Source: a virus. From it: a stretch of 64,000 nucleotides of DNA. The position numbers and the translations under genes are program-made. Shown here piece after piece: positions 8,027 through 46,858 of this stretch. Numbering within the stretch: position 1 is the first letter of the stretch; every line of letters starts with the position of its first letter. Location of the stretch: IMG/VR virus record IMGVR_UViG_3300032287_002972, positions 103,991 to 167,990 of that record, one strand, 5' to 3'. Under the pieces are notes generated by a model. It ran no database searches, was not told the origin of the DNA, and saw only the letters and a list, made by a program, of their open reading frames with translations.

Positions 8027-8206
8027 GGTAAGGTGGCGGAATGTTTAAACAACCCCGTTCCAGACGGGAAAATAACGTGGTTCGAATCCACTACGGGGTT
8101 AATGTTTAAACTTGGTTAGACGCACCATAATAATAATATTTGGAAGGAGATAAGAATGGCGCTTACCCTAAACCAAATTTTACGGGTTCGAATCCCGTCC
8201 TTACCG
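8027..8206 (+). ncRNA. tRNA-like RNA with no canonical anticodon arm and a D-loop insertion
   Basis: Acceptor GGTAAGG/CCTTACC, split D arm GCGGAA..TTGGTTAGACGC, T arm ACGGGTTCGAATCCCGT. Confidence 0.75.
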
Positions 8207-8396
8207 CGACAGTTAGCGGATTATACTTGGTAGTTCTTGTAAAGTCTGACTATACGTGAGGTGGTTTTTTTAACTTTCCACCAGTAGTGTTCAAAACTAA
8301 AAGTTAATGCAGGTTAATAAAGGGGTAAGGGAAAGTCTAACTATCGAGTACCTTACAACCTACTGTATAAAATGTACATATTTAAAATTGATTATT

Positions 8397-8780
8397 ATGG
8401 AAACCAATTTCAAAATTCCTAAATTTATAAATAATAACAATTCATTTGAAAAGATTGGATATGATGAATATTGTATTACATATCTTAAAGGACTTAAAGT
8501 CCATCAATTAAGGATTGTTGTGAATGGATATTTAACCAAACAATCAATAAACATTATTGATTTTAGTTCAGGATATAAAAACAAAATATTAATTGGTATT
8601 AAAGAATATCTTACAAACGGTAAGGATAGTAAAAATAAAGTCACTAAAAAAGTTACACTGTATTACTTAGAAACTTTTTATTCAAAAAAAATAATTCATA
8701 ATGTTAAATCATTCTTATTACCTATTAATAAAGAAGAGTCAAGAGATAAATTAACTGAATTTGGATTAATCAATTTATAG
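8397..8780 (+). CDS. hypothetical phage protein
   Basis: ORF between two tRNA-like RNAs. Confidence 0.65.
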   Translation: METNFKIPKFINNNNSFEKIGYDEYCITYLKGLKVHQLRIVVNGYLTKQSINIIDFSSGYKNKILIGIKEYLTNGKDSKNKVTKKVTLYYLETFYSKKIIHNVKSFLLPINKEESRDKLTEFGLINL

Positions 8781-8876
8781 TAAGGTGGTGGAATTGGTTA
8801 GACACACCGAAAGGTAGGTACGGTATGGATCCCGATTAAATAATCCTAAATACGGGTTCGAATCCCGTCCTTACTA
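8779..8876 (+). ncRNA. tRNA-like RNA, anticodon arm replaced by an ACC-GAAA-GGT hairpin
   Basis: Acceptor AGTAAGG/CCTTACT, Leu-type D arm, canonical T arm. Confidence 0.75.
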
Positions 8877-8966
8877 CATATTCTCGATTTCTGTTTATAG
8901 TTGTTGTAATTACGTTTTTGGTTTGAGGGTAGGAAGAAAAATCCTACCCTTTTTTTATGCTTAATT

Positions 8967-9013
8967 GAATTTAGTGGGGCAAGGATTGGAACGGAGGTTG
9001 CCCCACTAAATTC
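8967..9013. repeat. intergenic palindrome, copy 6
   Basis: GAATTTAGTGGGGCAA...TTGCCCCACTAAATTC. Confidence 0.85.
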
Positions 9014-9128
9014 AAACTATATTGTTACCTGGTTCAAAAAAATACTTATAAAAAACTATAAAAAACATTTGGTTATATGGGATTTTATTTTTATCTTTGT
9101 TAAGTATTTATAACTAAAAAACTTTGAC

Positions 9129-10052
9129 ATGAATAAACAAATTAGAGAAGACATTAATCGAGTGATTGAACTAAATAAAATTTTAGAATCACAATCAGAA
9201 ATGGGAGAAAGTGGATTTAGTTCTGTTGGGAGACAACTTAGGGGTCTTAATCCTAAAGTCCAAACAATTGCAATTCTTACGGGTGAAAATCCTTGTGCAG
9301 TAAAGTTAACACCACAAGAGAATACTGAACTAAATAGAAAATTAACCGACTATTTAGGGAAGGAATATTACGATTTTATTAACGGTAAACGTATAGGTTA
9401 TAGACCCGTAAAAGGTATGTATGGTTCACCAGAAAATAGTTATATTGTAAATAATATTACTAAAGATGATGCAATGAAAATTGGTAGTGATTTTGAACAA
9501 GAAAGTATTGTCTATGGTGAAAGATATGAAGAAGGTGATGAATATGGAATGAAATTCCAATTAATTGTAAGTCACCCATGTCCTACAACAGAAGATCCCG
9601 TTGGTACTGTATGGGGTGAAACAAAAGTTTTTATTAATGTAAGAAAAAATGCAGATGATTTTTACACCGAAGTTAAGGGTCGTAAATTTTCAATACCTTT
9701 CTTTGGTGCAGATAAGTACGACAAAGATTTAGATACTGATGGAAAAGAACAGAAAGACCAAGACGGAGAAATTAAATTAAAAAAAGTTGGGTATAGTGAT
9801 TATAGTAAAGCCGGTTGGGAAAAAGATAGTGGTAAAATAAAAGATATTGATTTTACTCCCGAACCTATTAATGAAACTTTTGACTATAAGGGAACTGTAT
9901 ATAAACCGAACCAAAATTATAAAAATATCCCTAATGAATTAAACGAACAAATTGATAGGGCTCTACGTGGTAGTTTAAATTCTCCAAATCCTCCAAGTAG
10001 AAAAATAAGAAGGGCGTTTGTTATGACTAAATTAAGAAAGTATAAAGATTAA
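9129..10052 (+). CDS. putative S-adenosylmethionine lyase (T3 SAMase-like) with N-terminal leader
   Basis: ILTGENP, N..L, GMYG.PE.S, FEQESIV, FYTEVKGRKF. Confidence 0.6.
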   Translation: MNKQIREDINRVIELNKILESQSEMGESGFSSVGRQLRGLNPKVQTIAILTGENPCAVKLTPQENTELNRKLTDYLGKEYYDFINGKRIGYRPVKGMYGSPENSYIVNNITKDDAMKIGSDFEQESIVYGERYEEGDEYGMKFQLIVSHPCPTTEDPVGTVWGETKVFINVRKNADDFYTEVKGRKFSIPFFGADKYDKDLDTDGKEQKDQDGEIKLKKVGYSDYSKAGWEKDSGKIKDIDFTPEPINETFDYKGTVYKPNQNYKNIPNELNEQIDRALRGSLNSPNPPSRKIRRAFVMTKLRKYKD

Positions 10053-10113
10053 AATAAAACAAAATAAAAAAAATCCCCGTATTAAAAACACGGGGATTTT
10101 TTTATGCTTAATT

Positions 10114-10160
10114 GAATTTAGTGGGGCAAGGATTGGAACGGGGGTTGCCCCACTAATTTC
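10114..10160. repeat. intergenic palindrome, copy 7
   Basis: Same arms as copy 6. Confidence 0.85.
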
Positions 10161-10269
10161 AAACTACGCAGTTACCTGTATCAAAAAAATACTTATAAAA
10201 AAAATATAAAAAATATTTGGTTATATCAAATATTTGTTTTATCTTTGTCGAAACAAAAAACGATAAACA

Positions 10270-11025
10270 ATGAATTATTTGAATCGACCCAACGCAAAGA
10301 AATTAACGGGACTAAATTATTTAGGTTCTATTAATCTAACAACGAAACACGCTAAGGCGTACGACTACAATGAACTAACCTATTCACTTTATTTGGCACC
10401 CGCTAAAATGAGTGGTTATGAGGTTTGTCCTAAAAGGAATGAGGAGTGTACCTCTTTATGTTTAAACGAATCGGGAATGAATCGTATTGACGTAAAGAAA
10501 AACAGAATCAATGAATCGAGGATTAAAAAAACAAAACTATTTTTTGAAGAAAGGGAATTTTTTGTAAATTGGTTAATCGATGAAATTTCCATTGCGAAAA
10601 GGAAATCTGAAATTGTGGGTTATAAATTTAGTGTTAGGTTAAATAACACGTCGGATATTTCACCCGAATTATTTTACACTATGATTGACGGTAAAAAGAA
10701 AAACATATTGGAAATATTTCCTGATGTTCAATTCTACGATTATACGAAAGTATATAACAGAATTAAACTAACTAAAAAATATCCTAATTACGACCTCACA
10801 TTTTCATTCAGTGGTTATAATTTTGATGAGTGTATTGAATCCTTAAATAATGACGTTCGTGTTGCCGTGGTCTTTAAAAAAGTACCTGAAAAATTTTGGG
10901 GTTATGAAGTCATTGACGGTGACAAATATGACATGAGGTACAAAGATGGAAAAAATGTTATTGTGGGTTTGAAATTTAAAACAGTTAGAAATAAAATTAA
11001 AGAAAATTATAAATTCGTTGTTTAA
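10270..11025 (+). CDS. GP88-like phage protein
   Basis: LYLAP, CP...C...CL, RLNNTSDI, FYDYTK, DGD..D.R, GLK. Confidence 0.75.
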   Translation: MNYLNRPNAKKLTGLNYLGSINLTTKHAKAYDYNELTYSLYLAPAKMSGYEVCPKRNEECTSLCLNESGMNRIDVKKNRINESRIKKTKLFFEEREFFVNWLIDEISIAKRKSEIVGYKFSVRLNNTSDISPELFYTMIDGKKKNILEIFPDVQFYDYTKVYNRIKLTKKYPNYDLTFSFSGYNFDECIESLNNDVRVAVVFKKVPEKFWGYEVIDGDKYDMRYKDGKNVIVGLKFKTVRNKIKENYKFVV

Positions 11026-11186
11026 TCTTTTTGTTTTATTCCGTACCATTTATTTGGTACGGATTTTTTATAATCTAATTTAGATTTAATTTGGTAAGGA
11101 CTGTCATACAACACAAAAAAAATATAAAATATATTTGGTTATATGGATTATTCTTTTTATCTTTGTCTTAATAAAAAAACATAAAC

Positions 11187-11468
11187 ATGAATGAAGTAAC
11201 GAGAGCAAAAGAAGTTTTAAAAAACGCAGGTTATTTTGTGGATAACCTTTGGTGTAATGATGACATTGAATCTTTTTTTACTAATGTATCTAAAGAAGAC
11301 TGTCAAAAAGTATTAAACAGAGCGTTAACCAATGATGCAACAATGGAACAAATTTGGTACGCAATCGAATCTGTTGGTGAAGACATGGGGTTAAAACGTA
11401 CTGACTATGAGGAGGACGACAACACTTGTTCGTACTGTGGAAGAAAGGATTGTGTGAAACATGATTAA
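11187..11468 (+). CDS. hypothetical phage protein
   Basis: ORF with C-terminal CSYC...C..H. Confidence 0.7.
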   Translation: MNEVTRAKEVLKNAGYFVDNLWCNDDIESFFTNVSKEDCQKVLNRALTNDATMEQIWYAIESVGEDMGLKRTDYEEDDNTCSYCGRKDCVKHD

Positions 11469-11613
11469 TTTATTTGGGTAGGATAATTTTCCTACCCTTT
11501 TTTATTGTTCGATTTGAATTTATGTATTACCTACATTACAAAAAATAATTATAAAAAATGTTTGGTTATATGGAAAAGTATGTTTATCTTTGTCTAAACA
11601 AAAAACAATTACT

Positions 11614-11982
11614 ATGAAAAATGAATTTATCCCGTTTCAACAAGCGTTGGAACTAAAAGAATTAGGATTTGATGAACCCTGTTTAGGTAAATTTTACTAT
11701 AATCATTTAGAAATTGGAGGAAATTGGCGTAATGATGATTTTAAAGAAGACCCTGATATTTTTATTTCGGCGCCACTATACCAACAAACATTTAGGTGGT
11801 TTAGGGAAAAACATAGTTTATTTCATTCAATAGACCCACTTGGATATAATATGTGTTTAGGACTTGTAGGTCAATTAGGGAAATTAAAATCTTGTAATGT
11901 ACCTAATTATGGTACTTATGAAGAGGCGGAACTTGAATGTACTAAAGAATTAATCTCAATAGTGAAAACAAAAAAGAACTAA
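11614..11982 (+). CDS. conserved phage protein, EFxxxxxALELKxLxFDEPC family, paralogue 1
   Basis: Paralogous to 11984 and 13580. Confidence 0.8.
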   Translation: MKNEFIPFQQALELKELGFDEPCLGKFYYNHLEIGGNWRNDDFKEDPDIFISAPLYQQTFRWFREKHSLFHSIDPLGYNMCLGLVGQLGKLKSCNVPNYGTYEEAELECTKELISIVKTKKN

Positions 11983-11983
11983 A

Positions 11984-12391
11984 ATGGAAAATGAATTTAT
12001 CCCGTTTCAACAAGCGTTGGAACTAAAAGAATTAGGATTTGATGAACCCTGTTTTGGTAAAATCTATGCTGATGGTGGAAGTGAACAATTATCGTACCCT
12101 TATAAAAATAGTGACCAAATAGGGAAAGTAACAAGTTGTTCCGCACCACTATACCAACAAGTATTTAGATGGTTTCGGGAGAAGTACAATTTGAGAGGAT
12201 TTATAGGGTTTAGACCAAATATAAAACAATTTGATTATCATATCTATGATATGTCTTTGTCAGGTAAGGAATATGTTAAACAAAGAACTTATGAAGAGTT
12301 TCAGAAAGACCCTAAATTCGGAACTTACGAAGAAGCAGAACTCGAATGTACTAAAGAATTAATCTCAATAGTGAAAAATAAATATAAATAA
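11984..12391 (+). CDS. same family, paralogue 2
   Basis: Ends near-identical to paralogue 1. Confidence 0.8.
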   Translation: MENEFIPFQQALELKELGFDEPCFGKIYADGGSEQLSYPYKNSDQIGKVTSCSAPLYQQVFRWFREKYNLRGFIGFRPNIKQFDYHIYDMSLSGKEYVKQRTYEEFQKDPKFGTYEEAELECTKELISIVKNKYK

Positions 12392-12446
12392 TATTTGGTT
12401 ATATGGAAAAGTATGTTTATCTTTGTCTAAACAAAAAATAATAACA

Positions 12447-12857
12447 ATGAGAAGAATTAAAGTTAGATTTTCCTTACAACGTGGGGAGAATTACATGAAG
12501 TGGAAAGTAGTTGATAGTGACGGAACTGTTACTTATTATTCACCATGTGATACACAACTAATCATGCGGGGGTGTACTTTGAAAAACAATACAAAACTAT
12601 CTGAAAAGATTTTCAATGGTACGTCAACTAAGAACATATGTGGTTGGATTTTATGTGAAAGTATTGAGATTAACCATTCCGATTTTATTAAAGAATCGGA
12701 TTTTAAAATCAAATACAACCCTAAAATTGCACCGTACTGGATGTTCTTAGGTGAGAATGTTGACAATAGAGAAATTTCATATATTGTTTCTGTTGACTAC
12801 AAACTATGTATTGACTTAATTCCCGACGCGATGAAATTAGGGGGCTACAAAGGTTAA
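12447..12857 (+). CDS. hypothetical phage protein
   Basis: ORF after promoter. Confidence 0.7.
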   Translation: MRRIKVRFSLQRGENYMKWKVVDSDGTVTYYSPCDTQLIMRGCTLKNNTKLSEKIFNGTSTKNICGWILCESIEINHSDFIKESDFKIKYNPKIAPYWMFLGENVDNREISYIVSVDYKLCIDLIPDAMKLGGYKG

Positions 12858-12973
12858 TATCGGTATCACAAACTTTTATTCAATTATGTAAAAAATAGTT
12901 GAATAAAAGTTTGGAAAATAAAAACATTAACTTTATATTTGTATATTATTTATAACCAAAAAAAATTAGAACA

Positions 12974-13519
12974 ATGGGATTAGACATGTATTTGTACAAA
13001 AAATCGTATGTACAAAATTGGGATCATCATGAACCAAAAGAAAAACATACAATTACTGTTAAACTTGGTGAAAATATCCGAGAGGATATTAAACCAGAAC
13101 GTATTACCTACATAGTTGAAGAAGTTGGGTATTGGAGAAAGTTCAATGCGTTACACTATTGGTTTGTTGAAAATTGTCAAGATGGGGTCGATGATGGAAG
13201 AGAACATTATGTTACAATGAATCAAATGAAAGAATTATTGGACACTCTTAATGAGGTTAAGAACTTATTAGATAAATCTAAATTAGTTTCTAAAGTTTCA
13301 AAAGATTGGCAAGGTAATGAAATTACTGTTGAATGTTTCGAGTGTGAAAACGAAGTTATGGATATTCTACCCCCAATGGAAGGGTTTTTCTTTGGTGGAA
13401 CTGATATAGACCAATACTACAAAAACCAAATTGAAAGAAGTATCGATATTATTCAAGAGTTGATTAATGAAACAGATAACGGAAAAAGTTCTGAATTTCA
13501 TTATCACGCATCATGGTAA
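12974..13519 (+). CDS. conserved phage protein (MGLDMYL / YWRK family)
   Basis: MGLDMYL...YWRKFNALHYWF...GFFFG...YHASW. Confidence 0.8.
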   Translation: MGLDMYLYKKSYVQNWDHHEPKEKHTITVKLGENIREDIKPERITYIVEEVGYWRKFNALHYWFVENCQDGVDDGREHYVTMNQMKELLDTLNEVKNLLDKSKLVSKVSKDWQGNEITVECFECENEVMDILPPMEGFFFGGTDIDQYYKNQIERSIDIIQELINETDNGKSSEFHYHASW

Positions 13520-13579
13520 AATGATTTATGGTACGGTCTTCATTGACCGTACCTTTCTTTAAAAACAAAATAGATTAAT

Positions 13580-13921
13580 ATGGAAAAGGAATTTGTAAGT
13601 TATGAAATAGCGTTAGAACTTAAACAGTTGGATTTTGACGAACCATGTTTAGCGTCTTGGAATTTTCGAACAAAAGATTTTTATTACAACGGTCAACCGT
13701 CAAAATTTAGTAGTGAAGACGTAATACAATTACCATTGTACCAACAAGTGTTTACATGGTTTAGAGAAAAGTACGGTATTTATGGGTCTCCAGAAAAATT
13801 TGACGAAAAAACATGGTGGATCGAATGGGGGGGTTGGAATAGTTCTATTTGTGAAACTTATAAAGAAGCTGAAAACGAATGGTTATTGAAATTGATTGAA
13901 GCCGTAAAAGAATCTATTTGA
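13580..13921 (+). CDS. same family as 11614, paralogue 3
   Basis: ALELKQLDFDEPC, PLYQQVF.WFREK. Confidence 0.8.
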   Translation: MEKEFVSYEIALELKQLDFDEPCLASWNFRTKDFYYNGQPSKFSSEDVIQLPLYQQVFTWFREKYGIYGSPEKFDEKTWWIEWGGWNSSICETYKEAENEWLLKLIEAVKESI

Positions 13922-14044
13922 GATTAAAGAGTGTAGTACAAACTTTCATTCACATAAAAAATAATTGAACAAAAGTTTGGAAATTAAAAATATTAACTTT
14001 ATATTTGTATATTATTTATAACCAAAAAAACAAAACAGGTTAAA

Positions 14045-14353
14045 ATGAAAAAGACAACATTATCTGCTGGTGGGACATCTTATCATGGTGTAAACATTAC
14101 AACAACAGTTCAACAATTAATTGATATTCTTGGTGAACCAACTCATGTTGAAAACACGGGAGAAGACAAAACTAATTTTGATTGGAACTGTATTACAAAT
14201 AATGGTGACGTTGTTACCATTTATGACTGGAAAGAATATAGACCGATTAGTGAAGATGAAGTAATTGAATTTCATATTGGTGGATATACTTTAAGTCCCA
14301 CATTAGATGCACAAAAAGAATTATTAGAAATGATCTCAAATAGATTAAAATGA
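14045..14353 (+). CDS. conserved phage protein
   Basis: DKT..W, TIYDWK, FHIGG. Confidence 0.75.
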   Translation: MKKTTLSAGGTSYHGVNITTTVQQLIDILGEPTHVENTGEDKTNFDWNCITNNGDVVTIYDWKEYRPISEDEVIEFHIGGYTLSPTLDAQKELLEMISNRLK

Positions 14354-14661
14354 TAAATGAACTTAATGACAAAATTACAGAAGAATTTGGTTTAGATTTC
14401 GATCAATTGTTAGATACTAACAATATGATTGAAGACTCTTACAAAAAACATAGAAGAGATTCAACTTTTTGGAAACAAACTATCATTGGAATTAATGTGA
14501 ATAATTATCCACATATTAATAAAGAACTATATGGTTTTTGGGAAACTAATATATATGTTTGGAGTGATGAATATGGTTTCGACAAAAGAGATATTATTAC
14601 TTTAAACAGGGTAGAACCAAAAGAAAGAACTATTATTCAAAAATATTGGGAAGAGGTGTAA
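14350..14661 (+). CDS. hypothetical phage protein
   Basis: ATGA-type overlap with the previous gene. Confidence 0.7.
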   Translation: MINELNDKITEEFGLDFDQLLDTNNMIEDSYKKHRRDSTFWKQTIIGINVNNYPHINKELYGFWETNIYVWSDEYGFDKRDIITLNRVEPKERTIIQKYWEEV

Positions 14662-14668
14662 AAAGATT

Positions 14669-14745
14669 AGTCAGGTGGCTGAATTGGAGACAGAGGCACT
14701 CCGTTAGATGACGGGTGGATACAGGTTCGAATCCTGTCCTGACTA
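14669..14745 (+). ncRNA. tRNA-like RNA with a non-canonical 6-nt loop
   Basis: AGTCAGG/CCTGACT-A, T arm ACAGGTTCGAATCCTGT; central hairpin CCGT-TAGATG-ACGG. Confidence 0.7.
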
Positions 14746-14769
14746 CAAAAACAAACAAAATAAATTAAT

Positions 14770-15111
14770 ATGAGTGGAGGATTTTTTAACTACGACCAAT
14801 CTCGGATACGGAATATAATTGATTCCATTGAAGATTTGATTGAAAATAATGGTAGACCTAAAACAGAACAAGAACTAAAAGATGGTTCTTGGGGTTATGC
14901 TAATTACAAGGAGTATTACGAAATATATCCTGGAGAAAGGTTTTGGCATAGGTATCCTGATGAAGTCATTGAAGAGTTTAAAAAAGGATTAACTTATTTA
15001 AAAATTAGTTATGTCTATGCTAAACGGATCGATTGGTTAGTGTCAGGTGACGATGGTAATGAATCTTTTCTAAAAAGATTAGAAAAAGAATTAAGTGACC
15101 TTGAAAAATAG
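14770..15111 (+). CDS. conserved phage protein (MSGG.F.Y...RIDWL.SGDDG)
   Basis: Motifs as named. Confidence 0.75.
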   Translation: MSGGFFNYDQSRIRNIIDSIEDLIENNGRPKTEQELKDGSWGYANYKEYYEIYPGERFWHRYPDEVIEEFKKGLTYLKISYVYAKRIDWLVSGDDGNESFLKRLEKELSDLEK

Positions 15112-15300
15112 ATTAATATGAATGAAACAAAAATGGTTGAACAACCTGTTGTAACTATCGACAACTTTTATCATGGTGAAAATGTACTTGTAGTACACTC
15201 ACACATTAACTCAAAAGGAAAGATGATATTGAACAAAGTCGAGGCGTCTTTGTTATTATTGGAACTTTACAAGTTTATTAAATCTTAAAAAACAAATAAG

Positions 15301-15522
15301 ATGGAATTTACATTAGAAGAAAAAATGAAGGCAATCTTCAACTCAGGAAATGTTGTTAAGGTTGAAAAAGTAATAAGAACAAAAAGTGGGGGTACGTATT
15401 ACAAATATGTTTGGGACGTTGATGGAACAAAATCAAGAAATTGGTTTGGGTTCGACACTCTCGATGAGTGCGTTGAGGATTGTTTAACATATTTAACTAT
15501 AATTAACTATAAATTAAAATGA
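15301..15522 (+). CDS. hypothetical phage protein
   Basis: ORF. Confidence 0.6.
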   Translation: MEFTLEEKMKAIFNSGNVVKVEKVIRTKSGGTYYKYVWDVDGTKSRNWFGFDTLDECVEDCLTYLTIINYKLK

Positions 15523-15722
15523 ACGAACAATTAATTACCGAATTAATTAAAATCAAATCTGATGCTGGTGTACAATTAACCGATAGGGAACTGGCCATTA
15601 GATGGTGGGGTAGATTATCCACAACTGAACAAGAAGAAGTTCTCAGTAATTCTAATATGGTAATACGTCCAATTGATGATTATGATATAATGTATTGGTT
15701 ATGGTTAAACCAACAAAAATGA
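15519..15722 (+). CDS. hypothetical phage protein
   Basis: ORF. Confidence 0.6.
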   Translation: MNEQLITELIKIKSDAGVQLTDRELAIRWWGRLSTTEQEEVLSNSNMVIRPIDDYDIMYWLWLNQQK

Positions 15723-15897
15723 AAGAAAGAAATTTTATTAACTAAAATAAAAACTTTAAAATTATGATAGTAAAAATTATTTATTTATTGTTTACAATTT
15801 TCATTATATTTGCATTAGGATTTGAAGTTGGTAGAAGTGTTGGTATTCATCAAGTTAAGAAAATAATAGATAAGTGGAGTTAATCGTAAGGTGAAAA

Positions 15898-15918
15898 TCG
15901 AATCCTGTCCTGACTACA
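15898..15918 (+). repeat. isolated 3' end of a tRNA-like element
   Basis: TCGAATCCTGTCCTGACTACA, identical to the 3' ends at 14745 and 16201. Confidence 0.8.
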
Positions 15919-16072
15919 AATAAATAAATAAATAAATGAAAAATTTAAAATCAAAAGAATCTAAGGTTGGAACTTTGTCAACTTGTAAATGTAATTATAT
16001 TTTGACAACGGAACAAGGACATAGAGTGATTAAATGTTTAAAATGTGGTGATGTAAAACCTATTTAATAAAT

Positions 16073-16201
16073 AGTCAGGTGGCGGAATTGGTAGACGCAA
16101 GAAGGAGTAACTTTAGAGTGAGAAGTAATCAGCCTCATTGATGGGTGAAAGTTCCAAGTGCCGGTGATTTGGAGATACAGGTTCGAATCCTGTCCTGACT
16201 A
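16073..16201 (+). ncRNA. tRNA-like RNA with an expanded central region
   Basis: AGTCAGG TGGCGGAATTGGTAGACGC ... ACAGGTTCGAATCCTGT CCTGACT A. Confidence 0.75.
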
Positions 16202-16519
16202 CAAAAACAAAATAGATTAATATGATAAGTGAAATAATACTACTCATTCAGATGTTCATATTAGGTTTTCTACTTGGTATATTGAGTGTCATTAAAAAGA
16301 ATTCAGAAAAAGATTGAATCTTTATGAAAAACAAACGTGTAACTATCGACAAGATAATAGATAACGATGTAAAAAGAAAGATGGTTAAAGAAATAAGGGA
16401 CAGGGGTATCACAAATCATATGTATATTCACAGTCGATTATATTTACCGATCTTAAATCGTCTTAGACAAATGGTCGACTTCAACAGTCTCTTAAAATTT
16501 TAAAACAAATTAGTGCGGC

Positions 16520-16978
16520 ATGAAAAAAATTACAAATGGTGTTTTTACACCAATTATTGAAACCTCAAGTAGAAAGAGTTCTTTTGAATGTTTTATTACT
16601 AACATTGGAAATGAAAATGGTCCTTTGTTGAACTCATTGTTAGAACAATATAAAGAACATATTTATGAACATGAAGAATTGTTCAATCAACTAGCTTACC
16701 TCGAAGAACTTATTATCCAAATTAAAATTCGGGAGAACATGGATGAGATTAAATTATTTATTGTTCGTGATTATATCTACGCAAGAACAACATTCTTTAC
16801 TAAGGAAAAAGAAAGATCCGAAATTAGAACAATCGTAGATAGATTGGATAAGTATCCATATAAAACAATCGAAGATTTAAATAAGGACACTTTCTTTATG
16901 TCTATGGTTTCCAAGAAACTCAAAGCAATGATGGATATCGAAATAGAAAAAAATGTAAAAGTCGTTTCTGAAGTATGA
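16520..16978 (+). CDS. hypothetical protein
   Basis: ORF. Confidence 0.7.
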   Translation: MKKITNGVFTPIIETSSRKSSFECFITNIGNENGPLLNSLLEQYKEHIYEHEELFNQLAYLEELIIQIKIRENMDEIKLFIVRDYIYARTTFFTKEKERSEIRTIVDRLDKYPYKTIEDLNKDTFFMSMVSKKLKAMMDIEIEKNVKVVSEV

Positions 16979-17415
16979 AAAAAAATAATTTTATTAAAAC
17001 AATCAAACCATCACAGTTAACAAACATAGTATGGTTTGTATTACCTTTCGTATCTTTAATTTTCCCTCCACTGGTAGTCCCCGCACTGATATTTGCTTGG
17101 TACAAATTTTTCGACGTGGATACTTGGTCATATAATTTCTATGAGAGAACCATAGAAGAACGTAGAGGTGTGTTCAATGTATCACAAGAAGAAGTTCAGT
17201 ACTATAGGATTAAATCCATAATGGTAGAAGAACCATTGTGGATGAGATTGTTCGGTCTGTGTGTGATTCACATAATAACCTCAGAACAGTTTAAACCACG
17301 TATGACAATCTATGCTGTGTATGACGGAGAATATATTAGAGAAATGATCTCCGGTCTAACCTATGACTGGAGATTGAAAATGAACATTAGAGATCACGAT
17401 ATTTATAATATATAA
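16975..17415 (+). CDS. membrane protein with bacterial PH (bPH_2/YdbS-like) domain
   Basis: Two N-terminal TM segments, then Y...ERRGVF....EV.YYRIKSI...PLW.RLFGL. Confidence 0.75.
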   Translation: MKKNNFIKTIKPSQLTNIVWFVLPFVSLIFPPLVVPALIFAWYKFFDVDTWSYNFYERTIEERRGVFNVSQEEVQYYRIKSIMVEEPLWMRLFGLCVIHIITSEQFKPRMTIYAVYDGEYIREMISGLTYDWRLKMNIRDHDIYNI

Positions 17416-17423
17416 TATATTAC

Positions 17424-19632: not shown

Positions 19633-19649
19633 GTTAATATATTGTTTGG

Positions 19650-35321: not shown

Positions 35322-35328
35322 AATTAAT

Positions 35329-36565: not shown

Positions 36566-36590
36566 GAAAAACGGTTTTATATATAAATAT

Positions 36591-37899: not shown

Positions 37900-37904
37900 T
37901 AACG

Positions 37905-38153: not shown

Positions 38154-38160
38154 TTTATTT

Positions 38161-38674: not shown

Positions 38675-38689
38675 AATATTATTTTTTAA

Positions 38690-39247: not shown

Positions 39248-39253
39248 ATTAAT

Positions 39254-39547: not shown

Positions 39548-39548
39548 G

Positions 39549-40031
39549 TTATAATATTTTTGTTATTTTTTCAATCACATTTTCATCCCAAACACATCCA
39601 GACTCAACATCCCATGTACTAATCCAAATATTATATAATGTACTTGAGATAAATGGATTAATTTCTATACCACCTTTAGTTTCACAAAATCTACCCCATT
39701 CTATTAAAGTAAAACAAGTATTAACTATATGTCCTAAAGGTTTATTATATTCAGAAGTAAAATCTCTTAATACTTTACTGTTGTCTATTTTTAGAATTTT
39801 ACTTTCATCAAGTTTTATTTCGAAAATATTATCACATTCCCATCCAGGCATATTTGATCTGACCCAATCTATCCAACTGGTTCCAATACCATACCATAAA
39901 CCAGATGGTTTAAAACCATTTTCTTGTTTTGAGAGTGGTGTTGGTATAAAATTAATTTCACTTTCTTTAGACATTATAATCCTTGAATTAGAATAATTTT
40001 TTGAAATGAAATTATAATCTTTCTGATTCAT
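39549..40031 (-). CDS. conserved phage protein (KP.GLWY...WDV.SGC.W)
   Basis: motif. Confidence 0.7.
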   Translation of the reverse strand: MNQKDYNFISKNYSNSRIIMSKESEINFIPTPLSKQENGFKPSGLWYGIGTSWIDWVRSNMPGWECDNIFEIKLDESKILKIDNSKVLRDFTSEYNKPLGHIVNTCFTLIEWGRFCETKGGIEINPFISSTLYNIWISTWDVESGCVWDENVIEKITKIL

Positions 40032-40098
40032 AATCTTTCTCTCTTTTTTTGTTTACGGAAATATTTTTTAAAAAAATTAGAAATTTTAGAAATTATTT

Positions 40099-40821
40099 TC
40101 ATGATACTACCCCTAAAGATATTTTTTCATCTTGATAAATAAGATACTCACCACTTGTTCCTAATGTATCAATGTAATAATACCTACCACCAGTTGTTTG
40201 TCCTTTGATATCAATTTTATTTTGTGTGGTGTGTCCCACAACCTGAATATATTCTTTTCTAAAAGAATCGTAATTAGATTCTTGTAATGACTTTGGTCTT
40301 ATCCATATAGGTGAAGACTCTACACTATCACCATACGGATCCCATCCGATAAATTTAAATGATTTTAAATTATTTTTAAATAAATCATTAACAATGATAT
40401 CAACTGATTCGTTAATATCCATGTCATATTTTTTTACCCAATATTCAAACCATTTATTACTAATACCTGCATGACTTATCAATATGTTATCTATTTTATG
40501 ACACATCGATAAGTGTTCCATTGTTTCATTCAGTTTTTCCTGAATAACAAAATGATGTTGTCTCTGATGACCACTATATGTTTCGTTCACACCAGGTAAA
40601 TAATGGAAATCATGATTCCCTGTTAATAATACTACCTCAAAATCAGAAGTCTTTTTTAGTGCAACTAATTCTTGGTAATTATATAATTGTTCTGTGAAAC
40701 TAATACTTTCATGAGTATCAAAATAATCACCAACAAAAACAACTTTATCAGGTTGTTCGTTTTTAATGATTTCTCTCCATACACCACGACCGTGTATGTC
40801 ACCAATGATAATTGTTTTCAT
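40099..40821 (-). CDS. calcineurin-like metallophosphoesterase
   Basis: GDIHG, GDYFD, GNHD, HAG, GHT. Confidence 0.9.
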   Translation of the reverse strand: MKTIIIGDIHGRGVWREIIKNEQPDKVVFVGDYFDTHESISFTEQLYNYQELVALKKTSDFEVVLLTGNHDFHYLPGVNETYSGHQRQHHFVIQEKLNETMEHLSMCHKIDNILISHAGISNKWFEYWVKKYDMDINESVDIIVNDLFKNNLKSFKFIGWDPYGDSVESSPIWIRPKSLQESNYDSFRKEYIQVVGHTTQNKIDIKGQTTGGRYYYIDTLGTSGEYLIYQDEKISLGVVS

Positions 40822-40882
40822 TTTAATATTTTAATATTTTAATATAGTACAAATATATGAATAATAAACGATAAAACCAATT

Positions 40883-41947
40883 TTAAACGTATTTTTTATT
40901 TACCGTATCAAATATCCTCTTCATTCTATTAATATCATCATCGTTTATATTATATAAGTCACTACTATCATCCGTAGATATTAAATTATATTCTTTAACG
41001 TAATGTTTTTCTTTAGATATATCTTTTAACATAGATTGACAGTTGTCATAATATTCAAAATCTGTACTAACTTTTTGTGGTACTATTTTTAAATAATATG
41101 TAGATTTTTCACGTAAAATACAATCGTAAAAAATATCATCATTTTGTTTAAGAACTTTTAAAATAAAACAATATAGAAGAAATTCTTTACTAAATTGTTC
41201 ATTAGATTCACCATAATAATATATATTATTTTTCATCACATATGAAATCATGGTTTGGAATGAATTATATATGTCTTCATTTTTTAATGATTTAACTATA
41301 TAATTCTCAATACTCATATTATTTCTAAACATATAAAACAACACATCTAAAAAATAATAATCATATCCAGGTGAAATACTAGATAATAAATTATCTTCTG
41401 TTTTCCAATCTATTAAATTAAATACACAATAATAAATTCCATCTTTAATAACTAAATCATCCCATCTATCTACCATATCTGATAATTCAAGAGAACTATC
41501 TTCATCATCATATTCTTCACTACTTAAAATAAGTACGGGAATATACTTTTGTCCCAAATTGTCTGCCGCAACAACTCTATGTCGACCTTCTTGTTGGTTT
41601 TCAACATAATTTAAATACGGCATGTCAAATTTAACACCCTCCTTCATCTTTTCCATAATCCGTTGTACTTTCCAATCGATAATGTATCTAAATTGATCAG
41701 AATAACTAGTGTTTTGTAGTTTTGAACATTCTTGTAAGTATTTCTCTTTAGTCATCCATTTAATTTCACCTTCCCAATACTCATATTTTTTTGGTAGTTC
41801 ATTATTTTTCCCAAACAATACTTTATCATAATCAGGAATAGATGAAACGGTTTTAAAAAAACCATAACTATTATCTTCGTTTAGGTTTTTTAAACTTTCA
41901 TTTAAATTTTTAACTAAATCAATCTGTTCTCTTATTTGTTTCGACAT
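40883..41947 (-). CDS. ParB/Srx-like N-terminal domain protein
   Basis: EGRHRVVAA..LG...IPV. Confidence 0.6.
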   Translation of the reverse strand: MSKQIREQIDLVKNLNESLKNLNEDNSYGFFKTVSSIPDYDKVLFGKNNELPKKYEYWEGEIKWMTKEKYLQECSKLQNTSYSDQFRYIIDWKVQRIMEKMKEGVKFDMPYLNYVENQQEGRHRVVAADNLGQKYIPVLILSSEEYDDEDSSLELSDMVDRWDDLVIKDGIYYCVFNLIDWKTEDNLLSSISPGYDYYFLDVLFYMFRNNMSIENYIVKSLKNEDIYNSFQTMISYVMKNNIYYYGESNEQFSKEFLLYCFILKVLKQNDDIFYDCILREKSTYYLKIVPQKVSTDFEYYDNCQSMLKDISKEKHYVKEYNLISTDDSSDLYNINDDDINRMKRIFDTVNKKYV

Positions 41948-42115
41948 GGTTATCTTTTTTTTGATTTAAAAACCTTAACCAAAAAGTTTTCACACATATC
42001 GTATCTGGTTAATCTAATATCTCTTCTGATTTCAAACAATCCATTAAGATTTCTTGAGTCTACACGATTATTCATTTTTTCTAACATTTTAAAAGGTGAT
42101 TTTATCATAAATACT

Positions 42116-42949
42116 TTATTTTAATCTTTTTAAAACATCACTCATTCTAGAATACATTTCAGCACCAATTGGTATAGATGATAATGTCATAATAAAATTA
42201 TTGATGTATGAATAAACATAAATAATCTCACCAGATGTTTTTGTTGCGGTACTATTAATATAGACCAATATTGAAATGATAATAAAAGAATATTTTAAAA
42301 CGTTTATCCAAAACCAATTTTTTCCCGATAATGTTGATGAAAATATAATCAATCTTCTACTACGATAGAAAAAGTTTTTTATTCCATCAATATCCGAATT
42401 ACTAATAGTATTAACTCTATTTTCTGAATGATTGTTCATTACGGAAGTAGATTGAGATATTTTTTTGTAAAATATCTTTACTATAAAATAAACAGGAATA
42501 TAACAAAACACCATAATAAATCCAACTGTTTTGTTTTGTGAAAATACGAACGAAACACTACCTATCATAGTAATAATTGTTGCCAAATAATAATGTGCAT
42601 AATTCTCAAGTAAATTTATCACTTGACTAGCTAAATCAACTCTAGCAATTTTAGTTGAAGAATCTTCATTACTTTTTGATATGAAATTGATTACAATATC
42701 GTTATATATCTTTGTATATACTTTAGTATCATATACCATTCTTTTATAAAGAAAGACAATGTATCCAACATATATCCCAATTAATACCAATAGTGGTGAA
42801 TAATTTTTATTAATTATTCCATCAATGGTTTTACCCAAAAAAAATGGTTGAAGTAAAACTAATATTTCAACTAACCCCATAAAGATATATATGGTTATTA
42901 ATTGGAATTTATATTTTTTGTAAAGTTTTTTTAGTAAGTTGTTGTTCAT
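42116..42949 (-). CDS. ABC-transporter six-TM domain protein (no ATPase)
   Basis: PFFLGKTIDG, R.VYDTKVY, multiple TM helices. Confidence 0.7.
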   Translation of the reverse strand: MNNNLLKKLYKKYKFQLITIYIFMGLVEILVLLQPFFLGKTIDGIINKNYSPLLVLIGIYVGYIVFLYKRMVYDTKVYTKIYNDIVINFISKSNEDSSTKIARVDLASQVINLLENYAHYYLATIITMIGSVSFVFSQNKTVGFIMVFCYIPVYFIVKIFYKKISQSTSVMNNHSENRVNTISNSDIDGIKNFFYRSRRLIIFSSTLSGKNWFWINVLKYSFIIISILVYINSTATKTSGEIIYVYSYINNFIMTLSSIPIGAEMYSRMSDVLKRLK

Positions 42950-42958
42950 TATTTTTTT

Positions 42959-43213
42959 TTAAAAATTATCAAAACACCATATTGGGGTTTTCTCCCCCAC
43001 ATAAGCGTCTTTCATATTGAAATAAAAATATTCTATTGCATCCTCGTAATCCATATCATTCATTAGTATTTCAATACATTTTGATACAGAATAAATAAGT
43101 CTCATGTCATTTTCATCAACACCTATTATGGCATCATCAAAACCATCTACTTTAAGAAAATACTCGCTTGGATATGCATCAAATATTGCATTAACATAGG
43201 GAATGTCATTCAT
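42959..43213 (-). CDS. conserved phage protein (DGFDDAIIG...YVGEKTP)
   Basis: motif. Confidence 0.75.
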   Translation of the reverse strand: MNDIPYVNAIFDAYPSEYFLKVDGFDDAIIGVDENDMRLIYSVSKCIEILMNDMDYEDAIEYFYFNMKDAYVGEKTPIWCFDNF

Positions 43214-43277
43214 AATAAATTATTTTTTTTAAAAATACTATGTTATATCGGAAATATCAACTTCTCTTTTCAGAATT

Positions 43278-44657
43278 TTAATTCCCCATGTATTTTTTAT
43301 ATAACTCATTTGCTTTGTTTGTTGTTGAATTTTCTATTCTCACCAGTACATAGTAAAAAATAGATTCAACAGTTTCTTCAAACTGTTCAACAGTCCTAAA
43401 ATTACCAATATTTGTTATATTTAATTTATCAGATATATTCAAATTTTTTATATCAAATAAGTCTTCTACATGACTTTTATCTAAGGCATAAAAATACTTT
43501 AATATGTTTCTATCTTTATCGAATATGATACCCTTAATAACACTATAAAGTCTTTGTAAACATTCGTATAGAACCTTTTGTACTTGAGCAGATTCTAATG
43601 CGTTATTATATGTTACACCATCTATCTCTATCCAACCTTCAAGGTCTTCATATTGATTGTCAAATTCCTCAAACGCCTCATTTATAAGGTATAAATATAA
43701 ATCTTTTTTGTACTCATCCAAATCTTTAACAGTTTGTTTTCCATATTTCTTTACTTTTACATAATCTTCTATGGATGTTGCCTTATTTTTACGTATGTCT
43801 TTTCTTAACAAATCTAATATGAATCTTGAGTGTTTACTACTGTCTGATTGAATATTAAAAATCTGATTTTTTATGTGTTTAGGTAATTGATCCAAATATA
43901 AACTATCCTTTTTAAAGAATTTATCCTTAAATTCTTTAAAATCATCATCGAAATTTTCAAAACCGTTCATGTCATCAATATATTGTGTGATTGTTTTATA
44001 TAAATCATCATCATTATACATTACCAAATATGCTATTTGTTTGAAAGGATATGTATGATATACATATTTACTAATTAATGTGTCATCTAAATCTGTAGTA
44101 TAGGTATCCTTATATTCAATAGGATTTCTTTGACTATAGAAATTCTGTAATTTATCATATAGAAATATTGGAATATCAACTTTCTTACATAATAATACGA
44201 TTTTTTTCACAAAGTTATTTGGATTTTCCCCTACGTATATATGAACTTCTAAAATATACTTTATAGCATTAGGTATACTAGGCATATCTGTTATTATTCT
44301 GTCCTCTTGTTCTAAACTGTCTATTGAGTTAACATAACTACTTTTATCTTGTTTATCACTTTTTGGTAAGTTCCAATAATCAACAGGAGTAATTGCATAT
44401 CTTTGTTTAAGTTTCCTACCATCCAAAACTATTTTACCATATGTTTTTTTATATCCACTACTCCTACTTCGTGTTGTTGAAAGATAGTAAAATTTTTTTT
44501 TGTTAATTTTATAATCAGTATCACTACCCATTGATGCGACGGTATTTAATCTATTGTTTTCTATTACTTCTAATATGTATTTTGGGTCTATATAATGATA
44601 TAAAATGTCGGAAGAACCTTCATTAATTAAATTTTCTAAAATAGTTATTAAGTTCAT
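43278..44657 (-). CDS. putative ADP-ribosyltransferase-fold protein
   Basis: LYHY...LSTTR...EQEDR (H-S-ExE) in the N-terminal half. Confidence 0.5.
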   Translation of the reverse strand: MNLITILENLINEGSSDILYHYIDPKYILEVIENNRLNTVASMGSDTDYKINKKKFYYLSTTRSRSSGYKKTYGKIVLDGRKLKQRYAITPVDYWNLPKSDKQDKSSYVNSIDSLEQEDRIITDMPSIPNAIKYILEVHIYVGENPNNFVKKIVLLCKKVDIPIFLYDKLQNFYSQRNPIEYKDTYTTDLDDTLISKYVYHTYPFKQIAYLVMYNDDDLYKTITQYIDDMNGFENFDDDFKEFKDKFFKKDSLYLDQLPKHIKNQIFNIQSDSSKHSRFILDLLRKDIRKNKATSIEDYVKVKKYGKQTVKDLDEYKKDLYLYLINEAFEEFDNQYEDLEGWIEIDGVTYNNALESAQVQKVLYECLQRLYSVIKGIIFDKDRNILKYFYALDKSHVEDLFDIKNLNISDKLNITNIGNFRTVEQFEETVESIFYYVLVRIENSTTNKANELYKKYMGN

Positions 44658-44730
44658 AAATTAGTTTATTATAAATATTGTAAGATATATAATGTGTATT
44701 TCTAAAGGATACAGACGAAATAATATATTT

Positions 44731-44946
44731 TTAATACACCTTCTCCCCACATTTCAAAGGTGTACCGTCAGTATTTAACACCTGAATCGTACCATGTCTA
44801 TTATATTTGTAAATAAAACCATTTTCACAAACTATAGTGTAATCCCAATGTGTACCAATCTCATATGGGTCTTTCTGAGATTCACAATATACCCCTAAGA
44901 ATACAAATACAATTGATATTAATATTAAAAATAACATACTTTTCAT
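44731..44946 (-). CDS. small membrane or secreted protein
   Basis: N-terminal hydrophobic helix. Confidence 0.6.
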   Translation of the reverse strand: MKSMLFLILISIVFVFLGVYCESQKDPYEIGTHWDYTIVCENGFIYKYNRHGTIQVLNTDGTPLKCGEKVY

Positions 44947-44960
44947 GACACATAATTTTT

Positions 44961-45362
44961 TTACAATAAAATTTCAAATCTTCCTCTCATCTTTTCTATT
45001 GTTTCTTTTGGACAATCATGTACGTTCTCACCTCCATGTCTATTCTCCACAATAATAGAAAACACTTGATATCCATAAGTTTTAGCCAAATCAAAATAGG
45101 GTTTCATTTCCCATTCTTGTGTGAATGTATTAGATACCACAATTCTATCAACATTAACTTGTTCACCATTAGTGTTCATCCAAGCCGAAGTTTGTGCCTG
45201 ACAATAATTATGTGCTAATTTGATTTTAGAACTGTCAAATTTATATTCACCATTTTCCATAAAATATTGGTCTGCCTCAATGTGAACACCACCCAATAAT
45301 TTTGACAATGTGCTTTTACCACTCCCTGGTAGTCCTCTTAATAAGAAAAGTGTTTTACTCAT
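44961..45362 (-). CDS. P-loop kinase (AAA_33 / polynucleotide kinase-like)
   Basis: RGLPGSGKST, VSNTFT..WE, NVH..P. Confidence 0.85.
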   Translation of the reverse strand: MSKTLFLLRGLPGSGKSTLSKLLGGVHIEADQYFMENGEYKFDSSKIKLAHNYCQAQTSAWMNTNGEQVNVDRIVVSNTFTQEWEMKPYFDLAKTYGYQVFSIIVENRHGGENVHDCPKETIEKMRGRFEILL

Positions 45363-45363
45363 T

Positions 45364-45567
45364 CTAACGATATTTAAATGGATTGCCTTTCAAAATTTCT
45401 ATCAGTGCTCCCATAAAACCATATAAACCCATAACAATTAATGAAATTATTAAAGTTAAATAACTTAAAGGGTTGTAAGGATTTAAACGATGTCTTTCGT
45501 ATCCTCTTTCATTTATTATTTTCTGTGTTATTCCTAAAAATAATAAAATTTTTCTAAATTTTTTCAT
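45364..45567 (-). CDS. small membrane protein
   Basis: RLNPYNPLSY + TM. Confidence 0.55.
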   Translation of the reverse strand: MKKFRKILLFLGITQKIINERGYERHRLNPYNPLSYLTLIISLIVMGLYGFMGALIEILKGNPFKYR

Positions 45568-45607
45568 CGTTATTTTTTTTATACACAAATATAAGAAAAT
45601 AAAATTA

Positions 45608-46156
45608 CTATACAAGTTCTTTCTCTAATCTTTTCAAAACGTCATGACCCGTATGACCATCAAAAGGGAATAATGCCTTTGATGTTTCAGGAACTTTAAA
45701 ACCATTCCATCTGTCTGCAGGATAATGATTGGATATTTGACCACTTGGTAGTTTTGCTACAACAATAAACCAACCTCCGTCAAAACAAGGTTTACCATCA
45801 TTATGATTCCAACTCTTATGTACACTGTACTTGGTGTTATGTGTTACCATGTTCACGTCATGGAATTCTTCATCACCTTTTTGTTTTGACCACTCATTAA
45901 ACAATAAAGCATTGTAAACTGATCTAAAATCGTACAACTCCTTAAAAGTGTGATAACCATCAGAGGTGTTTTCAGTTACTTTATGATGATCCTCTTCCAA
46001 TTCAAATTGTCGAAGTATTTGAATTTCCCCTATTAATTGATTTTCTATTTTTATTGTTTCAATATCAGAGTTTTTAAATACTCCGTTTTTACGAATTTCA
46101 ATTACTTCTTGTAACTGTTTCTTTTTATCTTCAAGTTTTTGTTTCAAATTTTCCAT
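45608..46156 (-). CDS. conserved phage protein (SDGYHTF.ELY...FDGHT)
   Basis: motifs. Confidence 0.75.
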   Translation of the reverse strand: MENLKQKLEDKKKQLQEVIEIRKNGVFKNSDIETIKIENQLIGEIQILRQFELEEDHHKVTENTSDGYHTFKELYDFRSVYNALLFNEWSKQKGDEEFHDVNMVTHNTKYSVHKSWNHNDGKPCFDGGWFIVVAKLPSGQISNHYPADRWNGFKVPETSKALFPFDGHTGHDVLKRLEKELV

Positions 46157-46212
46157 ATTTTTTTTATACACAAATATATAACAAAGTTTTTATAATTCCA
46201 AATACATTTTTG

Positions 46213-46291
46213 TGGTCAGGGCCGGACTCGAACCGGATAAGTAACCATTTTACTGGACTCGGAAACCATTCCTCATTACACCCACCTGACC
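46213..46291 (-). ncRNA. tRNA-like RNA
   Basis: GGTCAGG/CCTGACC-A, CCGGTTCGAGTCCGG T arm; atypical D and anticodon region. Confidence 0.6.
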
Positions 46292-46294
46292 ATT

Positions 46295-46514
46295 TCCCCA
46301 CCATGAGATTACTGGTGAGTAGATTTTAACGGTTTTGTTTTCTTAAAAACTCTAACCATTAGTGTCTTACCACATGAAATCTAAAATCACACTACTAGGA
46401 GGGATTGTGTTTTCCCTTTATTCCTAAGAGACCGGCGTTTAAGGATGTCCAGTCCAATATCCTACCAAGTTTAAATGAGACATTGGCAAGTCTGCTGAGT
46501 ACCTCTTACTCATT
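46295..46514 (-). ncRNA. putative structured RNA
   Basis: No ORF, raised GC, several hairpins. Confidence 0.4.
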
Positions 46515-46515
46515 G

Positions 46516-46693
46516 TAGTCAGAATAGGGTTCGAACCTATACATACTATAGTATCAACCTGACGTATCCACGCCAGTTAAGGAATTGAACCTTAATATAG
46601 TATCCCACTTTGGGTAAATCGGATTTGCACCGAAGCGTCTACCAATCAGGAATATCAACTTTATCAGTGTTGCCCTTGTTCCGCCATCTGACT
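46516..46693 (-). ncRNA. tRNA-like RNA with a D-loop insertion and extra T-loop hairpins
   Basis: AGTCAGA/TCTGACT-A; GCGGAA..TTGGTAGACGC; ATAGGTTCGAACCCTAT. Confidence 0.7.
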
Positions 46694-46756
46694 GTATTAA
46701 GATTTCTAAAACCCATCTTTTACAAGGTAAGTAAACTCCATCTTATGTTTTTTGCG

Positions 46757-46858
46757 ATGTCAGAATGGGATTTGAACCCATACGAAGTATCTTAATTACA
46801 GGCTCTTTTCACGATACTACCAAGCCATGTGTGTGTCTACCAATTCCACCATCTGACA
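46757..46858 (-). ncRNA. tRNA-like RNA with an expanded centre
   Basis: TGTCAGA/TCTGACA; GTGGAATTGGTAGACAC; ATGGGTTCAAATCCCAT. Confidence 0.7.

Follow-up and report, generated by a model that had tools for sequence, protein, structure and literature searches.

Seven tRNA-shaped RNA elements with a common shell and unrelated, anticodon-less inserts in a lake phage contig

What could an RNA shaped like a tRNA be for, if it has no arm with which to read a codon? The question is raised by seven elements, here called E1 to E7, in a 64-kilobase (kb) stretch of DNA (hereafter the window) that forms the end of a 168-kb phage contig in the IMG/VR collection (record IMGVR_UViG_3300032287_002972; lake, uncultured; 27.5% G+C, about 50% complete by CheckV). 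Each of them combines an acceptor stem and a T arm of tRNA type (the shell, or chassis) with an interior (the insert, or cargo) that has no anticodon arm, and we refer to members of this family as chassis RNAs. On the whole we lean towards the view that each of the seven elements is the gene of a stable phage RNA acting in trans, in which a chassis derived from tRNA-Leu would serve maturation, stability and perhaps recognition by leucyl-tRNA synthetase (LeuRS) or the elongation factor EF-Tu, and in which the insert would be the effector. The existence and size of the family, the covariation of its stems, the conservation of its inserts and the missing decoding features can all be demonstrated by sequence comparison.

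The shared shell and the inserts of the seven elements

The elements and the features that belong to them are as follows, R1 being a covariance model built from 93 family members.

8027..8206, plus strand: E1, 180 nucleotides (nt), acceptor GGUAAGG/CCUUACC, discriminator G (sequence read)
8043..8111, plus strand: nested module in the D loop of E1, a miniature tRNA-like structure recognised by inspection
8779..8876, plus strand: E2, 98 nt, R1 score 79 bits
8925..8951, plus strand: intrinsic-terminator-like hairpin, about 50 nt 3' of E2
14669..14745, plus strand: E3, 77 nt, with a stem of 5 base pairs (bp) and an 11-nt loop at the anticodon position and a 3-nt variable region
15886..15919, plus strand: relic, a collapsed element, R1 score 14 bits (E 0.6)
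16073..16201, plus strand: E4, 129 nt, with a 76-nt multi-hairpin insert
46757..46858, minus strand: E5, 102 nt, discriminator U, R1 score 67 bits
46516..46693, minus strand: E6, 178 nt, with a 33-nt insert in the D loop, two partial R1 matches
46213..46291, minus strand: E7, 79 nt, a separate subtype with a 4-bp T stem and no Leu-type D arm

Reading the sequence bore out the seven positions that an earlier, sequence-only reading of the window had proposed, together with the length span of 77-180 nt and the paired acceptor of NGTMAGR type and T arm, which are present in all seven elements, each acceptor with 7 of 7 bp. The acceptor occurs in the variants GGUAAGG, AGUAAGG, AGUCAGG, UGUCAGA, AGUCAGA and GGUCAGG, and in each the 3' strand is complementary. 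U8 is found in every element, and a T stem of 4-5 bp closes a 7-nt T loop, which reads UUCGAAU in four elements and a near variant in E5 to E7. The same reading was right in assigning a Leu-type D arm to six elements, E7 being the exception, and in stating that none encodes CCA and that five (E2, E3, E4, E6 and E7) end in A-CA. These five carry A73; the remaining two end in G-CG (E1) and U-CG (E5).

Chance can be ruled out as the source of these resemblances on the strength of two models: four elements score 36-40 bits with the Rfam tRNA model RF00005 (E2 39.9, E4 39.1, E3 38.8 and E5 36.4 bits; cut-off 29 bits), and R1 matches of 63-79 bits are confined to these loci. R1 recovered exactly the seven elements and the relic and left the other 104 kb of the contig blank, with only partial matches for E1 and E6 because of their long inserts. 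ARAGORN found no canonical tRNA in the entire 168-kb contig, and its sole call among the elements was E3, reported as 'tRNA-???' with a 4-base 'anticodon', in line with the pseudo or undetermined result that had been expected. A practical consequence is that annotation pipelines based on Rfam will label many such elements as tRNAs.

Insertion takes place either at the position of the anticodon and variable arms or in the D loop between A15 and G18, the latter in E1, E6 and one other contig. On the predicted tRNA fold both sites (anticodon/variable position and D-loop 16/17) are ones that point away from the tRNA core. E1 uses both, with 69 nt within the D loop and 57 nt replacing the anticodon/variable region; its partial R1 match scores 27 bits, and its minimum free energy (MFE) has a z-score of -2.5. 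In the nested module of its D loop, two copies of the palindrome GTTTAAAC flank a long closing helix; enclosed within this are a 4-bp hairpin whose loop reads UUCCAGA and another T arm, GUGG-UUCGAAU-CCAC. A 17-mer search for relatives of this module gave none, only four GC-rich chance matches to unrelated sequences. In the E2 insert a GAAA tetraloop closes a 3-bp stem, which is joined by two small hairpins, and in E5 the crossing helices GGCU/AGCC and AGUAUC/GAUACU could form a pseudoknot, as judged by inspection. The insert of E6 is about 100 nt long and contains a second T arm and then a closed, 7-bp acceptor-like hairpin, so that parts of tRNA recur inside the inserts of both E1 and E6. In E7 the D position is taken by a single stem around two small hairpins, and a GGU loop in one of these is conserved. 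By eye, the E2 insert resembles the 3' region of 16S rRNA, and GAAGGAG, which is similar to a Shine-Dalgarno sequence, occurs in E1 and E4; these likenesses are too short to weigh.

Could the elements be decoding tRNAs after all, with introns or with unconventional anticodon arms? The absence of an anticodon arm of 5 bp and 7 nt, which the sequence-only reading had pointed out, holds for all seven; E6 keeps only a hairpin of 4 bp and 7 nt, with the loop UGCAAAU and G33 instead of U33. In none of the seven is U33 present together with a Leu anticodon in a 5-bp/7-nt arm. The E6 hairpin lies at the exact position of the anticodon arm and carries CAA at the anticodon position, and it looks like a vestige of a tRNA-Leu(CAA). 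ARAGORN, when permitted to place introns, yields forced calls, and in other phages the same acceptor/T shell (AGUCAGG...CCUGACU-A) bears canonical tRNA-Lys(UUU) and tRNA-Ile(UAU), at L032 (71 nt) and L047 (73 nt); the shell is therefore common to decoders and non-decoders. Set against these points are the results of an intron test, in which 782 single-segment deletions were made per element and ARAGORN was queried for full-length tRNAs, with shuffled interiors as controls. Removal of a segment did not restore an anticodon arm in any element: every cloverleaf so obtained was poor and had mismatches in its stems, most being no commoner than with shuffled interiors, and the sole excess over the shuffles, a 'Trp' call in E1, used the hairpin of the nested module. 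In addition, E3 (77 nt) and E7 (79 nt) leave no space in which an intron could lie, group I or II introns would not fit into inserts of 20-110 nt, and the conservation of insert sequence would not be needed in spacers that are spliced out. We take it from these sequences that the elements cannot decode, and we regard split or unconventional decoders as very improbable.

Conservation of stems and inserts across viral contigs

Covariation of the acceptor stems, first noted between the copies in the window, is found again in larger sets of sequences. In an alignment of 93 family members 93.5% of the cells were paired and double changes numbered 45 versus 5.2 in shuffles, counts that are partly circular for the acceptor because the scanner required acceptor pairing. 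A non-circular test used a 21-nt pattern taken from the E2 insert only, which matched 13 contigs (counts from scans of the collection are lower bounds throughout), and nine sequences were aligned. None of the 15 shell pairs was broken in these nine, and double compensatory changes were found in five of the seven acceptor pairs, one of the three D pairs and two of the five T pairs. The acceptor strand AGUCAGG was exchanged for AGUCCUG, AGCAAGG or AGUAAGG, with the 3' strand matching each time. In the 93-sequence alignment U8, G53, U54, U55, C56, A58 and C61 are invariant and A14, A15, G18 and G19 are present in at least 90%, while A73 is found in 91% of 172 family members.

The inserts are under similar constraint. 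The 45-nt E2 insert is almost invariant across the 13 viral contigs while the shell around it varies, and in its first hairpin the pairs covary (C-G, U-A, U-G) below a GAAA loop that does not change. A copy of E3 in a related 56-kb contig, G004, is identical at 77 of 77 positions (100%) although no alignment is possible in the flanks and other genes adjoin it there; a scan with an E3-type pattern matched G004 only. The G004 copy of E4 is 94% identical, and the similarity stops precisely at the edges of the element. The E7 subtype occurs in at least 119 viral contigs, with orthologues in the relatives G001 and G004. Its 47 distinct sequences of 75-81 nt share the D-position stem with two hairpins (constant GGU loop) and the 4-bp T stem, and in them a Y12-R pair shows covariation; in longer members additional modules occupy fixed sites. 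Every type of insert thus qualifies as a conserved RNA by itself, and conservation of the cargo that is no lower than that of the shell suggests that the cargo does the work. That the elements are natural RNAs on a tRNA scaffold, in which the shell is constant, the stems covary and the cargo is variable and anticodon-less, had been proposed from the window alone, and that much stands. The functions suggested along with it, a decoy for tRNA-targeting defences or synthetases or a processing signal, would both leave the cargo irrelevant. Because their sequences are so conserved, the E2 and E7 types probably each contact a conserved component of the host.

In the IMG/VR collection a degenerate 19-nt pattern of the 5' shell was present in at least 120 contigs. 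Among the matches listed, the extracted elements are 70-162 nt long with a nearly constant shell, and 168 distinct sequences fall into about 136 unrelated insert clusters. No motif shared across the 136 clusters rose above a z-score of about 4.5 among thousands of k-mers. Two chassis RNAs, in locus L193 and in G001, have a D arm of the class-I type instead of the Leu type. In a set of 185,579 prokaryotic species, each represented by one genome, a 23-nt shell word was found in only six contigs, all of them short contigs of metagenome-assembled genomes that resemble phage tRNA islands (two Flavobacterium, a Chitinophagaceae and others). The shell is therefore nearly absent from cellular genomes and is not that of a host tRNA-Leu. 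From these matches and from the absence of Shine-Dalgarno sequences, the host is probably a freshwater member of the Bacteroidota. Against GenBank phages, a megablast search with positions 8000-17000 gave no match, blastn with E4 gave only generic T-arm matches and blastn with E7 gave none. Full-text searches of the literature gave no description of the family; where tRNA-like candidates come up in a survey of 10,006 structured RNAs of viruses, it is in general terms only (PMC10690425).

Chassis and cargo have partly separate histories, since neighbours in the window (E1/E2, E3/E4, E5/E6) share shell variants and have unrelated inserts, and since the E2 insert occupies different shells in other phages. 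Across all loci, shell identity is 0.917 for adjacent and 0.883 for non-adjacent pairs, which is a modest effect. A general homogenisation of shells within genomes found no support (0.897 within loci versus 0.903 between loci).

The sharing of shells between neighbours is one of the observations that might suggest tRNA pseudogenes in decay, or a selfish repeat whose ends resemble a tRNA. Others are the collapsed relic, in which the 5' acceptor strand is fused to half a T arm, the 3' acceptor strand and CAA, with loss of the D arm, the insert and the 5' strand of the T stem, and an 8-bp direct repeat that flanks the E1 insert. However, every stem has been kept by compensatory changes and the inserts are conserved, which contradicts pseudogene status. 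The inserts differ within a genome and are conserved between genomes, the opposite of what a transposing repeat would show, and E3 is fully conserved amid diverged flanks. Decay or a selfish repeat therefore seems to us hardly credible.

Genomic context and candidate roles

All seven elements lie on the strand of their neighbouring genes and start 0-10 nt past a stop codon. The terminator-like hairpin that follows E2 places E2 at the 3' end of its transcription unit. The proteins encoded next to the elements have no informative Pfam domains. Other features of the region are listed here.

46171-46186, minus strand, and 1139-1154 and 2626-2641, plus strand: copies of a promoter-like motif, also present in the flanks of the G004 elements
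48722-49150, minus strand: protein with a cREC_REC cyclic-phosphate-processing domain, RNA-repair type
51329-52465, minus strand: RNA ligase, with an OB fold and an RNA_ligase domain (PHROG 'RNA ligase')
55121-55813, minus strand: calcineurin-like phosphoesterase (metallophosphoesterase) of the RNA-repair-type set

The promoter-like motif, CTTTG-N(2-8)-TANNTTTG, has four matches versus 0.8 expected and resembles the -7 box of the Bacteroidota. Elements E5 to E7 end just ahead of it, one copy lying directly after E7, and in G004 it stands directly upstream of the E3 copy. Between E6 and E7 is a non-coding spacer of 223 nt (46293-46515, minus strand) with a moderate fold (z -1.6). In G004 a freshwater-1 RNA (RF02979, 73 bits; L218:8109-8171, minus strand) follows the E7 orthologue downstream, about 107 nt away; this RNA has no match in the window.

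In other loci, including those of the relatives G001 and G004, the elements are found within arrays of ordinary tRNAs. The 9.8-kb contig of L193 is such a tRNA island, with about ten chassis RNAs followed by about 30 canonical tRNAs. C74 is present in 96% of family members and in 98% of the canonical tRNAs of the same loci, the commonest trailer is CAA, and CCA is rarely encoded. This common 3' signature suggests that the elements follow the same maturation route as genuine tRNAs. The elements would be transcribed within the surrounding operons; RNase P of the host, together with a 3' nuclease, would excise them, and the CCA-adding enzyme of the host would complete the 3' end, as for the genuine tRNAs of related phages. 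No CCA-adding enzyme, TROVE/Ro60 protein or leucyl/phenylalanyl-transferase (Aat) is encoded by the phage or by its three relatives (G001, G002 and G004). The tRNA shape would give the RNA defined ends and stability, and perhaps recognition by LeuRS or EF-Tu, and each insert type, as the effector, would form an RNA family with a target of its own.

The position of the elements directly behind stop codons also fits a role in cis, in which the tRNA-like fold would either be cut by RNase P and RNase Z, so that cistrons are separated, or form a cap that protects mRNA 3' ends from exonucleases, the RNA thus released being a by-product. The shared strand, the terminator after E2 and the promoter-like motif after E5 to E7 are consistent with such punctuation. 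However, a minihelix suffices for cleavage, and the elements retain a full elbow and conserved inserts. Relatives carry the same RNAs in tRNA arrays with no open reading frames (ORFs) between them, and the identical E3 of G004 has a different context, with the promoter-like motif just upstream. Punctuation as the main role seems to us improbable.

A second possibility places the function in the chassis itself, as a CCA-tailed and perhaps leucylated tRNA mimic that would act as a decoy or sponge for toxins of the acceptor end, for LeuRS or for EF-Tu, or as an aminoacyl donor. The elements are built on a type of tRNA whose synthetase takes no account of the anticodon: LeuRS depends critically on A73 and on the U8-A14, G18-U55 and G19-C56 core, and removing the anticodon stem-loop altogether causes only a 2.5-fold loss of affinity (PMC2377443). 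The chassis retains these features, with A73 in most members and with U8, A14, G18G19, U54U55C56 and A58 nearly invariant, and recognition by LeuRS is plausible. The RNA-repair-type genes, which lie 2-9 kb from the E5-E7 cluster, suggest that host RNA attack has to be faced. However, a decoy needs no conserved insert, and the inserts are as strongly conserved as the shell; anticodon nucleases would not recognise RNAs without an anticodon loop; A73 is missing in E1, E5 and many E7-type members; and no Aat transferase of the phage was found. We give a role of the chassis alone a small but real probability. Neither this role nor that in cis is exclusive of trans-acting RNAs.

Several results do weigh against trans-acting, effector-bearing RNAs. 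By single-sequence comparison with shuffles, the MFE of five of the seven elements shows no extra stability (z -0.07 to -1.1). A search of the window and of seven family-rich loci against Rfam at permissive E-values left the inserts unmatched, and no antisense site turned up when the contig was searched with the E2 and E3 loops in reverse complement, the loops themselves apart, so that none of the inserts has yielded a target. The one promoter-like motif that was scanned for upstream of the window elements had no match there, a result that, taken with the abutment of the stop codons, also fits a cis role. Finally, the discriminator is not A in E1, in E5 and in 30% of the E7 type, and leucylation therefore cannot be universal.

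Some other observations were made in the window. Downstream of E4 (16520-16978, plus strand) is a gene for a protein of 152 amino acids with a match below cut-off to the MID domain of bacterial Argonautes (21 versus 27 bits). Between 19247 and 35351 on the minus strand, about 80 tiny ORFs of 50-106 amino acids are tightly packed, often overlapping, across 16 kb; an alternative genetic code was rejected for the stretch from 19 to 35 kb, as no single reassignment of a stop codon gave longer frames. A repeated palindromic hairpin with 12-bp arms, TTAGTGGGGCAA / TTGCCCCACTAA, adjoins terminators at 8967-9012 and 10064-10193, and in the genome at C1:98398-100964, and gives spurious Rfam matches (Thr_leader, PyrR). 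The likeness of its loop to that of E2, at 10 of 11 positions, is probably due to chance.

Comparison with known systems

Transfer-messenger RNA (tmRNA) also has a tRNA-like acceptor/T domain in which a large insert replaces the anticodon arm. The elements differ from it in having U3-A70 instead of the G3-U70 identity of alanine, and they have neither a tag reading frame nor a series of pseudoknots. ARAGORN in its tmRNA mode found no tmRNA in the contig.

In bacterial Y RNAs of the YrlA type the two ends of the RNA are part of the Ro60-binding helix and the acceptor-like stem is closed, whereas in the chassis RNAs the ends themselves form the acceptor. Like the chassis RNAs, YrlA-type RNAs are non-decoding and possess a tRNA-like module with a T arm, a D arm and an acceptor-like stem (PMC4201824). 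The Rfam model of YrlA has no match in the window at E-values up to 10, and TROVE/Ro60, to whose gene (rsr) RNAs of this type are linked, is absent from the present phage (G000) and from G001, G002 and G004. Another tRNA-shaped RNA that takes no part in translation, and yet has a phenotype, is the pseudo-tRNA tRNA-Other of Bacillus cereus (PMC3399842), but it is encoded once, on the chromosome, has the usual size of a tRNA and bears no inserts.

Among tRNAs the comparison is with class II tRNA-Leu (RF00005). The acceptor, D and T framework and A73 are those of tRNA-Leu, and the sequence of the D arm matches phage tRNA-Leu from the same kind of island. The elements differ in having no 5-bp/7-nt arm and no Leu anticodon, in their interior of 20-110 nt with unrelated structure and, in some, in their D-loop inserts.

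An identical architecture has been reached by engineering. Ponchon and Dardel reportedly devised, in 2007, a 'tRNA scaffold' in which a foreign structured RNA replaces the anticodon stem-loop and which the cell processes and stabilises as a tRNA. That scaffold is a laboratory device, whereas the elements described here are natural, multi-copy and conserved. If they are made and matured as we suppose, phages have long used the engineers' trick of 2007, that of a structured RNA dressed as a tRNA.

The closest object described so far is species 1 RNA of phage T4 (rnaC, 139 nt), which is encoded with rnaD in the T4 tRNA cluster and is a stable phage RNA beside tRNA genes. Its 3' 92 nt have the architecture of the chassis RNAs, with an acceptor helix of 7 of 7 pairs, a GG-bearing D-like hairpin, a T arm with UUCGAAU and an interior that is not an anticodon arm. 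The location in tRNA islands is shared with G001, G004 and other contigs, although not with the present contig, which has no canonical tRNA. R1 scores rnaC at 26 bits, above several T4 tRNAs and compared with 36 bits for T4 tRNA-Leu, a score that comes from generic acceptor and T features. There are also differences, as rnaC lacks the Leu-type D arm, has dissimilar shell and insert sequences and bears a 46-nt 5' extension, and it is a single gene whereas the chassis RNAs are multi-copy with exchangeable inserts. It has no Rfam entry, and T4 species 1 RNA is still without an assigned function (PMC9697503).

More tentatively, phages of freshwater Bacteroidota, and others, could run a natural 'tRNA-scaffold' system, in which one matured, CCA-tailed and possibly leucine-charged chassis would display a large set of exchangeable effector modules, be they aptamers, antisense RNAs or RNAs directed against defences, with separate histories for chassis and cargo and with T4 species 1 RNA being the lone member that has long been known. 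If this were true, hundreds of distinct, conserved and uncharacterised phage RNAs would be added to a field that knows very few, natural scaffolds and cargo modules would become available for use, and T4 species 1 RNA, an orphan for 50 years, would gain a family.

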